Positions 12,167 to 18,456 of a stretch of DNA of 32,000 nt are shown piece after piece. This DNA comes from Verrucomicrobiota bacterium. GTDB lineage: Bacteria; Verrucomicrobiota; Verrucomicrobiia; Opitutales; LL51. Location of the stretch: the NCBI GenBank assembly GCA_021294815.2, contig CP095464.1:420001-452000 (forward strand), read 5' to 3'. Position 1 is the first letter of the stretch. Every line of letters begins with the position of its first letter. Both the position numbers and the translations under genes were made by a program. The notes under the pieces were generated by a model. The model was not told where the DNA came from and searched no databases. It saw only the letters and a list, made by a program, of their open reading frames with translations.

Positions 12167-12303
12167 TTACATCTTAATCGACGATGTAACCTGCAATACA
12201 CTCGTAATCACACTTAAGGCGAGGATCGCGACGCCAACAAAGGCACAGCCGCTATAGCTATTGCTGCTTTGATATCTCTGATTTCTCTTTTGCCTTGTTG
12301 CAT
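12167..12303 (-). pseudogene. Truncated copy A of the gspF 3' end (last TM helix)
   Basis: 12167-12250 encodes GCAFVGVAILALSVITSVLQVTSSIKM*, which is identical to the GspF C-terminus. I count 5 nucleotide differences, all synonymous third positions. Upstream of 12250 a 2-nt insertion breaks the frame (AIAIA.. vs AIAMG) and similarity fades. Confidence 0.8.
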
Positions 12304-12308
12304 GTTGT

Positions 12309-12987
12309 CTAGCTTAAAAGAGGCAACGGCATCAAAGGGAGACTTTGAATGCTATACGATAACGTTGAACCGTCTTCGAGCGTGACTTTATTCTTTTCTT
12401 CAGCCATGGGTATAAGATTATTCAATGCCTCCGCCAGATCGTTGTATGCTTCTACCATAGCGTAATCTTCTTTAAGAACATTGTTATACTCATCGCGAAT
12501 AGTTGTATTCGTCTCTTGAGAACATTTTGCATCATCTGCATCTAGAGACTGTCCTATCTGATCAATTTTGCTTTGATATGTCGTAATTTTCGCTGACAGT
12601 TCCCGATACTCTTGAGAGTCTTCGCTCAGGTTTAGTGCCTTTAGTGTATTTTGAAGTGGTGCAAGATTCCTTGATGCTTTTCCTTAATCTCTTTGGTTGC
12701 ATTCGCTACCTTTTCCGCTTTTATCACATCATACTCTGATCTTACAAATTGAAGCTTTGAAGTTCCAAATATACCGTTTGTAGTGGGCTGGAAAGAACGC
12801 TCATACAAATTTAGTTTCTTCTCGATAGCAGCACGATCGCCCTTGATCAATTTTATTCCAATATTTATAGGCTGCTTGATCGTCGAGAGTGTATTGCTTC
12901 TCCCTATATTTGGGTTTTCTTCTGCAGCCAAAACTTAGCCGTCTCCCATGCGCTAACTTTACCACCACTCTCGAGCTTAAAGGACAT
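12309..12987 (-). pseudogene. Decayed coiled-coil family member CC-9 (at least two frameshifts)
   Basis: ATG 12987 gives MSFKLESGGKVSAWETAKF, then the frame breaks at the T4 run (plus-strand A4, 12930-12933). Tracked ORF 12641..12931 continues ...IGIKLIKG...GTSKLQFVRSEY (cf. CC-5). A third frame then carries ...LNLSEDSQEYRELSAKITTYQSKIDQ... to TAG 12309-12311. The promoter geometry is kept but the hexamers have decayed (ATTTAA-16-TTAACT-6-ATG, 12994-13021). Confidence 0.7.
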
Positions 12988-13198
12988 AAGTCGAGTTAAT
13001 GCCACACGACGTACTTTAAATCAATAACACATTTATTTACATTTTTAACCTATACCCAAATATGCGATCGCATTTCGTAGAAATTTTGTGTTCGTGTAAT
13101 ACAACTTCGCATTCGACCTTAGCCACCTGTCTTTTTACAGAAGGCCTTGTTAAAAATGCTACGCAAATGATGTAGAATGCGGTTCGACTATCTCCGTT

Positions 13199-13399
13199 TT
13201 ACATCTTAATCGAAGAGGTAATTTGCAAGACACCCGCAACGACGCTCGCGACGCCGACAAAGGCACAGCACATGGCTATGGCCGTGACTATACTCGACAT
13301 CATGTTGAGGTCGTTCATCAGGACCCCGTGATACTTCTTGTAGACGCTGCTCAGAAAATCTGCGAATCGATATTCTTGCAAATTGGCAGGCGAGCTCAC
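13199..13399 (-). pseudogene. Truncated, more diverged copy B of the gspF 3' end
   Basis: The tracked 66-aa ORF ends ...SSVYKKYHGVLMNDLNMMSSIVTAIAMCCAFVGVASVVAGVLQITSSIKM*. This is clearly homologous to GspF ...KSVYKKYHGDLINDLNMMSSAVTAIAMGCAFVGVAILALSVITSVLQVTSSIKM*, with a 4-codon gap. Nothing upstream corresponds to the rest of GspF. Confidence 0.75.
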
Positions 13400-13466
13400 A
13401 CCGTGATAACGTTTAAAACTTATGAAATTACAGAACTCGCACCAGCATCAATTACATGAGATGCTA

Positions 13467-15931: not shown

Positions 15932-17053
15932 CTATGCATTGGAAGTTCCACCGTCAAATAGCCTTATTTTGTCTTTTATTGAGAGTTTCTCAGCAGCCAT
16001 CTGCTGTTTCTCTGTCTCTGGTGTCTCCGTTTTTCCCGATTCCAGAGTTACAGGTTTTTCGGGTTTTGCTATCTCCTCTTTTATGTCTGTAGATGCAAAG
16101 CCCCGCCGACTATAATTTTGATCGTCTGAGATGCTTTTATCTTGTAGTGTCTCGGCTGTGTTTTCAGATGTTTTTTCCATTAGACGGCCCTCAAAATATT
16201 CCTCCGAGCATCCTTGCTCTTGATCCTGTATTAATGGATCAAATATTTCTGGATCAATTTCACCACCAACCCAAAGCGGCGGTTCGCCATTATTTTGAAG
16301 AGTTGTCTCCTCATTAGTTATCTGTTGAGGCCCGGAAGTATTTATCTCCGGCGTGGTTTGACTGTTTAACAAATCGTCGTATTGATTAATTAAAAGCTGA
16401 GTTGCTGTATTCATAGCGTCCATGGCATTGAATCGCTCCTTATCGGTATAACTCTTATAGACATATCTCCTTTCATATGGACTTGCGAAATAAGTAGCGC
16501 CGGAGCCAATAGCGGTAGCGTATGAAAATTTCCGGCCATTAGCTTCTATATACTGCTTTTCCGGAAGGAGCTTCTTCCATTCTTTGCCAAACTTGGCGTC
16601 TAATTGAGCTTCTTTTGTTTCTTTTTGTCGCCTCAATGCTTCAAATTCTTGCTTTAGTTCATGAAACTTATTTATGGACTCTAGTCCTTTACTCTGGAAT
16701 GTTGTCCGGAGTACACTTTTGTTCATCTTCCATCTCGTTTTCGAAAAAGCCTTTGTCTTAAACGCTTCTAGAGGTAACTCATCTAACAAGTTCTGCACCG
16801 CCTGCCCTATAGCGATTTCCTGACCTTGCTTATCCTGTATCAATTTCCCATTTTTAATTGCTGAGCATAACCGTATAGCCGCAAAGGGCCCCTTCCCGGC
16901 AAGCGCTTGAGCACTCTTATCTCCGAGTTTTGCCAGCTCAACAACAATTTTCGCCGCATCCCGTTTATCAATATCATAGCTAGGACCGAACGCCTCCGAT
17001 CTACGAAACTTATACGTGCCCCAATTGGTATTACTAGCCCCGCTAACACTCAT
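15932..17053 (-). CDS. Coiled-coil family protein CC-11 (hypothetical) with acidic C-terminal tail
   Basis: It carries GKGPFAAIRL (cf. CC-5 KVGPFAMIGQL, CC-7 RPGPFARIKQG) and a helical K/E-rich middle. The acidic tail has DDQNY, a weak match to the DEQNYDQQ module. The ATG lies 6 nt after the -10. Confidence 0.8.
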   Translation of the reverse strand: MSVSGASNTNWGTYKFRRSEAFGPSYDIDKRDAAKIVVELAKLGDKSAQALAGKGPFAAIRLCSAIKNGKLIQDKQGQEIAIGQAVQNLLDELPLEAFKTKAFSKTRWKMNKSVLRTTFQSKGLESINKFHELKQEFEALRRQKETKEAQLDAKFGKEWKKLLPEKQYIEANGRKFSYATAIGSGATYFASPYERRYVYKSYTDKERFNAMDAMNTATQLLINQYDDLLNSQTTPEINTSGPQQITNEETTLQNNGEPPLWVGGEIDPEIFDPLIQDQEQGCSEEYFEGRLMEKTSENTAETLQDKSISDDQNYSRRGFASTDIKEEIAKPEKPVTLESGKTETPETEKQQMAAEKLSIKDKIRLFDGGTSNA

Positions 17054-17059
17054 AAGTTG

Positions 17060-17087
17060 AGTATAAATTTACAGAGAGATTTGTAAA
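17060..17087 (-). promoter_or_regulatory. Sigma-70-type promoter predicting a leaderless CC-11 mRNA
   Basis: Minus strand reads TTTACA-16 nt-TATACT-CAACTT-ATG. The -35 ends a T14 tract preceded by CCTGTAAAGCG. Confidence 0.6.
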
Positions 17088-17098
17088 AAAAAAAAAAA
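17085..17098 (-). repeat. Homopolymer tract (T14 on coding strand) fused to the -35
   Basis: Plus-strand A14 run. Confidence 0.9.
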
Positions 17099-17241
17099 CG
17101 CTTTACAGGTAAATTTTATAATTTCTCGCTGGTAAACTCAAACGTCGAGCCGAAAATTAAACACATCACCCCAACGGCAAAGGTCTGATATTCGCATATG
17201 AGCCAAATCTAACCAACTCTCTCAAACAAAAGCTAGCTTGT

Positions 17242-18456
17242 TTACATCTTAATCGACGATGTAACCTGCAATACACTTGTAATGACACTTAATGCGAGAA
17301 TCGCGACGCCGACAAAGGCACAGCCCATGGCGATGGCCGTGACCGCGCTCGACATCATGTTGAGGTCGTTGATGAGGTCTCCGTGGTATTTTTTATAGAC
17401 ACTTTTTAGAGAACCAGCAAGATCTCCCGTGTTTTCTCCCATCGAAAGAAGATCAAGCGCAAGGTCGGGCATCACGCCGTAGGTCTCAAACGCTTGCGTC
17501 ATTGAGGCCCCGTTCATCACCGCTTCCTTCGCTTCGATAAAACGTTGCCGAAAATAGCGGTTCGCAGATGCATTCTTCGCCAGCTCCATCGCCTCTGTCG
17601 TGTTGATCCCACTACCTAAAAGCGTCGCCAGTAGATTCGAGGTCTGACAGTAAAAGTTCTCTTTGATAATCATGCCTACAATCGGTATCCGTAATACCCA
17701 GTGGTCCAGATTGTAGCGCCCCTTTGGCGTGTTCCGATAGGCTAACGTTACGCCAATAATACCCAGAATCGATAGGAGAATCGCCCACCAGTATTGCCCC
17801 GCTACCTTCGATGCGTCAATGAGGTATTTCGTCATCTGCGGTAGGTCGCCTCCAAGCGATTTGAGCATGCTCTCAAGCTTCGGCATGATGAAAATAAGAA
17901 AGACTAACCCAACAACAATTCCAACCGTACAGACCGTCGCCGGATATGCCATCCCGGAAATGAACTTCTTCTTCAACTGCTCCTTCGTCTCTAGAAATTC
18001 AATCAAATTCGTAATCACAGAAATGAGATTGCCCGTCTTTTCTCCCGCTTCTACCATGCAAACCGTGTTCTCGTTGAAAATGTCTGGAAAGTTCCGCATC
18101 GCTTGCGCAATCGTCTTCCCTTCACATACGTCTTTGTGAATCGTTTCCGCTAAAACCTGCTCCTGCGGGTCCTTTAAACGCTTCCGCATCGTCCGTATCG
18201 CATCCCCAATCGGAAGCCCTCCGCCGTGTAATTGTAAAAACTTTTGAAGAAAACTGAGCGCAATCTTACTCTTGCTCTTCTGAAAAAGCTGAAACTTAAA
18301 CGAGCTCTTCGTAGTCCCGGTGTCTTCCGCAATCGCGGAAACCCGTATGCCACGGCCTTGTAGGCTGAGAATCGCTGACTTTCGATCCGCTGCCTCGACC
18401 GTCCCTGACGTTGTACGCCCTGTCGCCCCGTCCGTTCCTTTGTAGGAAAATTTCAC
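17242..18456 (-). CDS. gspF: Type II secretion / type IV pilus platform protein, GspF/PilC family
   Basis: 404 aa with the duplicated T2SS-F architecture: a soluble N-domain, then a TM segment (PATVCTVGIVVGLVFLIFIMP), a second cytoplasmic domain and two further TM segments. Typical motifs include LLGSGINTTEAMELA. GTG start. GspF and PilC cannot be told apart from sequence alone. Confidence 0.85.
   Translation of the reverse strand: MKFSYKGTDGATGRTTSGTVEAADRKSAILSLQGRGIRVSAIAEDTGTTKSSFKFQLFQKSKSKIALSFLQKFLQLHGGGLPIGDAIRTMRKRLKDPQEQVLAETIHKDVCEGKTIAQAMRNFPDIFNENTVCMVEAGEKTGNLISVITNLIEFLETKEQLKKKFISGMAYPATVCTVGIVVGLVFLIFIMPKLESMLKSLGGDLPQMTKYLIDASKVAGQYWWAILLSILGIIGVTLAYRNTPKGRYNLDHWVLRIPIVGMIIKENFYCQTSNLLATLLGSGINTTEAMELAKNASANRYFRQRFIEAKEAVMNGASMTQAFETYGVMPDLALDLLSMGENTGDLAGSLKSVYKKYHGDLINDLNMMSSAVTAIAMGCAFVGVAILALSVITSVLQVTSSIKM

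Follow-up and report, generated by a model that had tools for sequence, protein, structure and literature searches.

Orphan copies of the gspF 3' end resemble recombination footprints in a variable coiled-coil gene array of a Verrucomicrobiota bacterium

The window analyzed here is a stretch of 32,000 nucleotides (nt) from a Verrucomicrobiota bacterium (contig CP095464.1, positions 420,001 to 452,000). It carries a gene for a GspF/PilC-type platform protein (gspF) followed by an array of tandem genes that encode coiled-coil proteins of one family. The last codons of gspF recur between some of these genes as truncated copies, which are referred to here as orphan tails. A reading of this DNA made from its letters alone (the sequence-only reading) had drawn attention to the tails. 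They resemble the footprints of recombination that adds, removes, or reshuffles genes of the array, and do not look like small genes in their own right. The array is hypervariable and possibly phase-variable.

From right to left, the window reads sufB and sufC, gspF, the family genes CC-11 down to CC-1 (17053-881), and ruvC. All features of the tail array are on the minus strand, and sufB and sufC are on the plus strand. The gap between gspF and ruvC holds 11 tandem genes or pseudogenes of the one family, and the array of ~16 kb makes up ~2% of the 878-kb contig. Near gspF, a conserved linker of ~80-270 nt separates the genes and consists of a gspF 3' end, a spacer, and a poly-T promoter (Table 1). 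No gspF tails were found in the distal array (881-9385), where a probable frameshift divides CC-7 into two overlapping open reading frames (ORFs; 9053-9385 and 8470-9111). No recombinase or transposase ORF was found between ruvC and sufB, a locus in which all ORFs of at least 150 amino acids (aa) were accounted for, and an Rfam search of the window gave no match.

Table 1. Coordinates of the features of the gspF tail array, from gspF toward ruvC
Feature	Coordinates	Strand	Description	Basis
gspF	17242..18456	-	gspF/pilC-type platform protein gene, 404 aa, sole full-length copy	Pfam T2SSF E=5e-40
gspF 3' end	17242..17458	-	Last ~217 nt of gspF, synonymous mosaic hotspot; segment recurring as orphan tails	Change point and segregating-site density
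Linker G	17054..17241	-	Spacer and CC-11 promoter TTTACA-16-TATACT; T14 at 17085-17098 abuts -35
CC-11	15932..17053	-	Family gene, 373 aa	ORF; without Pfam family; singleton cluster among 15 billion proteins
Orphan tail C	15623..15763	-	Last 45 codons of gspF and stop; ATG at the junction gives a 46-codon ORF
CC-10	13467..15278	-	Family gene, 603 aa	N-terminal domain profile match P0108
Orphan tail B	13199..13348	-	~50 gspF codons, 12-nt deletion, 9 replacements
CC-9	12309..12987	-	Family pseudogene: family N-terminus MSFKLESGGKVSAWETAKF, then stops and frameshifts	Three-frame translation
Orphan tail A	12167..12250	-	Last 27 codons of gspF and stop, without in-frame start codon
Linker A	11984..12166	-	Spacer and CC-8 promoter TTTACA-16-TATACT; T15 at 12015-12029
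CC-8	9710..11983	-	Family gene, 757 aa	ORF
Tail stub D	9524..9539	-	First 16 nt of an orphan tail, AAAAATACCAGGGAGG, after CC-8; remainder kept in L001
CC-7 promoter linker	9392..9470	-	T11 at 9417-9427
Distal array	881..9385	-	CC-1 to CC-7; CC-1 to CC-6 compact, with short spacers
ruvC	162..806	-	Far boundary of the array; adjoins gspF directly in more distant relatives

The gspF product is 100% identical to UPA28834.1. PF00482 (T2SSF) matches it in two stretches, which agrees with a platform protein of ~400 aa with two T2SSF domains and three transmembrane segments. The NCBIfam models GspF, PilC, and HofC match it below their equivalog cutoffs; the best is GspF at 252 bits, which fits a type II secretion system or a type IV pilus.

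The orphan tails were delimited by searching the window by BLASTN with the gspF 3' end plus its downstream spacer. Tail C was matched at 15624-15760 (89% identity, 137 nt, E=1e-47), tail B at 13198-13348 (77%, 163 nt, E=4e-34), and tail A with its spacer at 11992-12250 (76%, 267 nt, E=9e-49). The search thereby confirmed copies A and C where the sequence-only reading had placed them; copy B also exists, but the reading had carried it to 13370 and BLAST support reaches 13348 only. As had been described, the three tails have the orientation of gspF, and each is preceded by the stop of a family gene and followed by the promoter of the next one. The proposed order gspF - CC-11 - C - CC-10 - B - CC-9 - A - CC-8 was also correct, except that CC-9 has stop codons in all frames and is a pseudogene. 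The 46-codon ATG ORF noticed on tail C exists, and tail B sits within a 66-codon ORF that begins with GTG (to 13399) and is annotated in GenBank as hypothetical protein UPA28831.1.

The homology of tail A extends beyond the stop codon through the spacer and promoter, ending 9 nt before the CC-8 start. At its upstream flank, gspF homology simply stops at codon -28, and the 2-nt insertion that the sequence-only reading had placed there is not supported, the local alignment score being no better than that of 1408 of 2000 shuffles. By the same comparison with shuffles, there is no decayed gspF homology upstream of the junctions of tails A and B, and upstream of the tail C junction there is a marginal 12-nt gspF match that was equalled by 51 of 2000 shuffles. 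A general claim that every tail is an old scar whose 3' half was refreshed was therefore dropped. The junctions themselves fall at varying positions, from codon -58 or farther upstream (B) to codon -27, and there are also remnants of only the last 8 codons or of 16 nt.

Comparison with close strains was possible for three contigs, L001, L015, and L016, whose flanks are 94-97% identical to the window. Their GspF proteins fall in the window's 90%-identity cluster, and that of L001 is 99% identical; a further contig, L019, duplicates L001. An exact look-up of the window's own GspF gave no contig, and L015 and L016 came from other proteins of its cluster.

The family proteins have in common an N-terminal domain of ~100 aa with the consensus M.F...G...S.W..AK...G.K.G.F...K.KFS, behind which lie coiled-coil regions of widely differing length and, in some members, acidic tails. 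An exhaustive search of 1.84 billion representative proteins with a profile of this domain gave 11 matches, all from the window's lineage, and the profile found nothing at E<=1e-3 among 5.8 billion proteins. Pfam and NCBIfam assigned the proteins to no family, returning only sub-threshold coiled-coil noise and no toxin or immunity matches. An AlphaFold2 model of the N-terminal domain (pLDDT 70) matched no fold in the PDB, and no signal peptide was evident by eye in the family proteins. As far as these sequence searches reach, the coiled-coil family is confined to the window's lineage. CC-5 and CC-6 (5915-7108 and 7169-7915) have a common C-terminal block of ~39 aa, DEQNYDQQTF.V.E.AQPVYD (59% identity), the rest of the two proteins being dissimilar, and CC-11 carries a weaker DDQNY motif; the block in CC-5 and CC-6 may be a shared targeting or interaction module.

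The promoters follow one layout: a conserved box (ATAAAATTTxCCTGTAAAGCG), a tract of T9-T19, TTTACA-16-TATACT, ~6 nt, and the ATG. The poly-T tract always abuts TTTACA, and its length (T9, T11, T14, T15, T15, T16, T16, and T19) differs between paralogues and strains. The three tracts of the window (17085-17098, 12015-12029, and 9417-9427) are its only runs of at least nine T in 32 kb; those of the other strains lie at L001 5072-5080 and 6396-6414, L015 11356-11371, and L016 3413-3427 and 4473-4488. A homopolymer tract at the core promoter whose length is polymorphic across copies and strains is one feature of phase-variable families. The tracts are candidate slipped-strand expression switches with near-leaderless mRNAs.

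How did the tails come to differ from gspF? Codon comparison by Nei-Gojobori counts exactly reproduced the figures of the sequence-only reading for tail C (14 synonymous differences and one replacement, A->V, over 45 codons) and tail A (5 and 0 over 27 codons). The differences of tail C from gspF fall 0/1/14 at codon positions 1/2/3. Tail B is more diverged, as had been said, with 15.7 synonymous and 9.3 nonsynonymous differences over 53 codons, a 4-codon gap, and a ratio of nonsynonymous to synonymous rates (dN/dS) of ~0.11. Tails C and A differ from each other by 12 synonymous changes and no replacement over 27 codons, at a synonymous divergence (dS) of ~1.16. When the observed transitions and transversions were placed at random, these proportions proved far from neutral (P<2e-5 for C, 0.0014 for A, <2e-5 for B, and <2e-5 for C against A).

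Tail differences that arose under protein-level selection, and not by neutral decay of a duplicate, had been proposed by the sequence-only reading and are supported by these codon patterns. If a tail were a snapshot of the resident gene that then drifted neutrally, with only the gspF lineage constrained, ~57% replacements would be expected; at most 1 of 15 was observed for tail C (P=6e-5). Were tails A and C both neutral, ~73% of their differences from each other should be replacements, and 0 of 12 are (P=1.5e-7). The synonymous excess between these two orphans rejects neutral as well as half-neutral divergence. The spacers provide an internal clock. The spacer after tail A is 24% diverged from that after gspF, the synonymous sites of tail A are 25% diverged (proportion of synonymous differences, pS, 0.246), and its nonsynonymous sites are 0% diverged; therefore, both sequences were protein-constrained for essentially the whole divergence time. 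A constraint at the DNA or RNA level, such as a terminator, was ruled out as the cause of conservation because of the 0/1/14 split across codon positions. The tails themselves do not appear, from their sequences, to be under selection.

The array-proximal end of gspF is itself polymorphic among the four strains. Every pair of strains is 96-99% identical over the first 990 nt of gspF and 87-92% identical over the last 225 nt; L015 and L016, for example, differ at 8 positions in the former segment and 19 in the latter. The best change point lies 217 nt from the gspF stop, with a segregating-site density of 0.194 on the array side vs 0.053 in the rest (Fisher P=4e-10), and nucleotide diversity (pi) climbs from 0.064 to 0.096 to 0.153 toward the array. 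In the last 53 codons of the functional alleles, 29 segregating sites lie in codons without amino-acid change and 3 in codons with one. The functional alleles are mosaics, since 17 of 28 informative site pairs fail the four-gamete test (39 of 66 once tail C is added).

Some of these polymorphisms recur in the orphans. Of the differences between tail C and the resident gspF, 11 of 15 are nucleotides found in functional gspF of other strains, and so are 3 of the 5 that distinguish tail A. Tail C differs from its own gspF at 16 of 138 sites and from the alleles of other strains at 15-18, and the functional alleles differ among themselves at 14-20. Two Logan contigs from other samples, L017 and L018 (57 kb and 8 kb), which were reached through members of the sufC cluster, end inside gspF after 163 and 238 codons and add no tails; their ends may reflect strain mixtures that diverge within gspF.

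Comparison of gene order shows where the array has grown. In relatives at 69% and 57% GspF identity, ruvC directly follows gspF, and in a relative at 67% a single family gene, starting 27 nt past the gspF stop, lies between them. The gap between gspF and ruvC is therefore a site of lineage-specific expansion. Among the close strains, L001 has gspF followed by a gene that resembles CC-6, a fragment, a gene that resembles CC-8, a tail that has decayed, and another gene; in L015, gspF is followed by a 325-aa gene and a tail; and in L016, it is followed by a gene of 215 aa, a tail stub of 24 nt, the remnant of a promoter, a tail (T1), a 320-aa gene, and a tail (T2). Since orphan tails are present in three independent assemblies of related strains, those of the window are not an assembly artefact, a possibility that the sequence-only reading had raised against itself. 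L015 and L016 are short-read Logan contigs, and both break off within a tail, as contigs are expected to do at repeats. The order CC-4/CC-3/CC-2 recurs unchanged in a further sample (L020), so turnover appears to be concentrated next to gspF. The CC-3 homologue of that sample (L020 580-2400) has 606 aa vs 461 aa in the window (2834-4219), with an apparent internal duplication of a coiled-coil segment.

Structural differences between strains have their breakpoints in the linkers. L016 1-3260 aligns with L015 through the gspF end at 97.6% identity, and L016 4248-5891 aligns at 89% with the L015 sequence that starts 81 nt before the gspF stop. L016 thus has the sequence of L015 with a 986-nt module added, which lies between the gspF end and orphan T1. 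The functional gspF end and linker of L015 align with orphan T1 and its linker in L016. The window and L001 are homologous up to exactly the gspF stop, and the window and L015 through the spacer to the poly-T tract. Linker G is 94% identical to L015 as far as poly-T and 76% identical to the linker after tail A. CC-8 and the homologous gene of L001 have the same 3' flank and run into the start of a tail, beyond which the sequences differ: the window lacks the rest of the tail and L001 continues into a B-type tail and promoter. The downstream flank and promoter type of tail B are likewise common to the L001 orphan tail. CC-8 is itself a mosaic, 68% identical to the 663-aa L001 homologue from residue 167 on and unrelated in its N-terminus. 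Neighboring family genes are unalignable or 20-35% identical, and the linkers are 76-94% identical. Tail A (12250) and orphan T1 of L016 (4248) have the same left junction (...CTGTGCC, codon -27/-28), upstream of which the sequences are unrelated, being the end of the CC-9 pseudogene in the window and a promoter remnant in L016; the shared position could go back to an ancient junction, stem from another rearrangement at that point, or be coincidental.

Some orphans have decayed. The L001 tail has an 11-nt frameshifting deletion and 3 replacements, T1 of L016 has a 3-nt insertion and 2 replacements, and the tail stub of L016 keeps the last 8 codons only. Changes private to orphans number 21 synonymous to 16 nonsynonymous plus three indels, vs 29:3 among functional alleles. 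The orthologous orphans L015 T1 and L016 T2 differ at 4 of 63 sites, which is similar to the 11% divergence of the surrounding DNA. In other words, the neutral decay expected of a partial duplicate is seen in tail B and in the orphans of L001 and L016; tails A and C do not show it.

The likely origin of the tails is that they are displaced former 3' ends of a single functional gspF, set aside as homologous recombination inserted, deleted, or exchanged modules. The linker, with its gspF 3' end, spacer, and promoter, would act as a dispersed direct repeat. Incoming DNA with a gspF 3' end, a new gene, and a tail, from another strain or a sister chromosome, would pair with the resident gspF. The exchange would place the incoming gene after gspF and move the 3' end that had been functional until then downstream, where it would become an orphan. 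The reverse event, in which gspF recombines with an orphan, would delete modules. Each orphan would have been under purifying selection within a working gspF until it was displaced, and once orphaned it would decay neutrally. The array-proximal 217 nt of gspF would harbor many old synonymous haplotypes, a deep pool hitch-hiking along with the variable array, and orphans would differ from the resident gene almost only at synonymous sites because they were functional gspF ends drawn from this pool. Tails C and A would be young or recently refreshed, and tail B and the L001 and L016 tails would be the visibly decayed ones. We infer from these patterns how the events were ordered, that the haplotypes came by transfer between strains, and whatever adaptive value there may be. 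That the tails are recombination substrates was one of three explanations offered by the sequence-only reading, and it is supported by the 986-nt module of L016, the end of L001 synteny at the gspF stop, the CC-8 junction, and the four-gamete failures.

Could the tails have arisen without any import from other strains? In-situ tandem duplications with their left boundary in gspF, followed by intragenomic conversion from the resident gene and occasional back-conversion, would leave a same-orientation partial copy at every module boundary, the classic scar of tandem duplication. Conversion accounts for mosaic haplotypes as well as import does, and some orphans are nearest to the gspF of their own strain (7 of 73 differences for the L001 tail T1, 5 of 84 for tail A of the window). 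However, tail C is no nearer to its resident gene than to the alleles of other strains, and a resident snapshot with neutral drift predicts far more than the one replacement seen in 15. The divergence of adjacent family genes means that old duplications would need continual conversion confined to the linkers, and module content differs between strains whose flanks are 94-97% identical. In-situ duplication is therefore an unlikely explanation.

The two remaining explanations of the sequence-only reading fared worse. In one, the tails are kept by purifying selection as translated single-pass membrane mini-proteins (46 aa for C, 66 aa for B) that act on the secretion or pilus machine. The start codons of C and B, the GenBank annotation of B, and a dN/dS far below 1 in all three tails would fit. 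Yet tail A has no replacement despite having no in-frame start, the orphan tails of L001 and L016 are frameshifted or carry indels, tail B has a deletion and replacements, and the junctions vary, down to remnants of only 8 codons and of 16 nt. Moreover, most of the apparent synonymous changes are common to functional alleles and are not specific to tails, and the orthologous orphans L015 T1 and L016 T2 diverge about as fast as their surroundings. Mini-proteins are very improbable. The other explanation, that each module once carried a complete gspF paralogue which evolved under selection before deletion removed all but its last codons, would account for divergence under selection. It is the least credible of all, because a search for several full-length copies found no second full-length gspF in the four strains or in relatives at 57-69% identity, at least three independent 5' deletions would be needed in a genome of <1 Mb, and the tail haplotypes are, in other strains, alleles of a gene present once. 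Every tail probably did belong to a complete gspF, either the single resident copy or an allelic one.

Several observations weigh against displacement by recombination or leave its details ambiguous. The module difference between L015 and L016 fits insertion or deletion, and the data fit between-strain transfer and within-genome exchange between tails and gspF alike. The comparison covers four strains only, three of them short contigs that stop ~1.6-4.6 kb past gspF. The analysis found no allele that matches C, A, or B exactly and could have been the donor, and the databases contain nothing between 69% and 99% GspF identity. The left junction common to tail A and L016 T1, with unrelated sequence upstream, is not predicted by displacement. 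Finally, the orphan-private ratio of 21:16 is still richer in synonymous changes than the neutral expectation of ~27:73; the surplus may reflect unsampled functional haplotypes, and weak remaining constraint is compatible with it.

A more ambitious and rather doubtful proposal is that the gspF 3' end and linker are a selected device of portable homology, an integron-like cassette platform that needs no recombinase. If so, the attachment sequence would stay intact in diverged lineages through the purifying selection that acts on an essential gene, and a gut bacterium of <1 Mb could capture, reorder, and discard poly-T-switched, lineage-restricted genes behind gspF. The orphan tails would then be landing pads and a reservoir of synonymous variation for gspF.

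A genome scan with GspF found one close strain and one Puniceicoccales metagenome-assembled genome without the array, a scan of JGI metagenomes found no close relative, and the nearest other GspF sequences are annotated as Opitutales or Puniceicoccales. UBA9783 is a family of gut Opitutales with genomes <1 Mb and type IV pili (PMC12306168), and the genome of the window would belong to or near it. The array is a hypervariable locus in what would be an uncultured gut lineage with reduced genomes. A lineage-restricted family with near-leaderless, variable poly-T promoters has the profile expected at a host or partner interface, and the array is therefore an obvious place to seek the effects of these bacteria on their environment. 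A second fast-evolving gene group lies in the window at 20670-24864 on the minus strand (485, 462, and 266 aa, with repeated ...RLQLF... motifs). It has a sub-threshold NCBIfam match to the MgtE magnesium-transporter model, with Pfam MgtE_N on the L015 homologue, and is ~67-73% identical in nucleotides between the window and L015 (2488-4057), the neighboring sufBC-gspF segment being 94% identical.

Comparison with known systems sets the locus apart from several of them. In silent-cassette systems of the pilE/pilS type the copies vary in amino acids; the intact tails encode the gspF peptide and vary synonymously. Integrons and other site-specific cassette systems are likewise a poor fit, with no recombinase at the locus from ruvC to sufB and tail junctions at different codons. 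Scars of tandem segmental duplication are similar in being same-orientation truncated copies at module boundaries with variable truncation points. Unlike simple scars, which decay neutrally, the gspF tails carry allelic, selection-filtered variation and coincide with breakpoints of rearrangement between strains. This offers a diagnostic: truncated copies that differ only synonymously may stem from repeated displacement of functional alleles and need not mean that the fragments are under selection.

The vlp genes of Mycoplasma hyorhinis are reportedly a phase-variable family with a homopolymer tract in the promoter, as Citti and Wise are said to have described in 1995. The likeness lies in tandem paralogues with a highly conserved promoter block and very divergent coding bodies, and in a promoter homopolymer whose length varies by copy or strain (here T9 to T19). 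However, the tract here lies upstream of the -35 and abuts it, vs the -35/-10 spacer in vlp, the gspF-array family has no lipoprotein signal peptide, and switching here is putative. The polymorphism of gspF itself recalls genes that flank variable loci. In E. coli, gnd beside the O-antigen cluster reportedly has elevated diversity by hitch-hiking or co-transfer (Nelson and Selander are said to have shown this in 1994), and elevated diversity of a flanking gene is likewise said to hold for ddl beside pbp2b, reportedly from Enright and Spratt in 1999. In both cases, as in gspF, a gradient of mostly synonymous mosaic polymorphism rises toward the variable locus and recombination breakpoints fall within the flanking gene. 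Internal orphan copies are not known there, whereas the gspF flank has been repeatedly duplicated into the array.

The closest known system in its working is that of the orphan CDI/Rhs arrays, of which the gspF locus is not a member. In orphan cdiA-CT/cdiI and rhs-CT/rhsI arrays, what are interpreted as displaced 3' ends keep homology to the main gene and are able to recombine with it (Ruhe et al. 2016, PMC4927057); the orphan-module work of Koskiniemi et al. 2014 (PMC3967940) is taken here as Ruhe et al. describe it. In both systems, 3' fragments of an upstream main gene lie in the same orientation and in tandem downstream of it with their homology kept, each followed by cargo. The orphans can be read as a fossil record of acquisitions displaced downstream, and through the homology that is kept, an orphan of the gspF locus, too, may be able to recombine with its main gene. 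The differences are in the parts. The CDI/Rhs fragment is a variable toxin whose main gene is a polymorphic toxin with cognate immunity, whereas at the gspF locus a housekeeping platform protein serves as the anchor, and its tail does not vary at the protein level (A and C match GspF but for the one replacement in C). The cargo of the gspF array is a separate downstream gene with its own promoter, and the array has no toxin/immunity pair, transposase, or integrase. The idea of the orphan module, developed for toxin loci, would extend to arrays anchored on a housekeeping gene.

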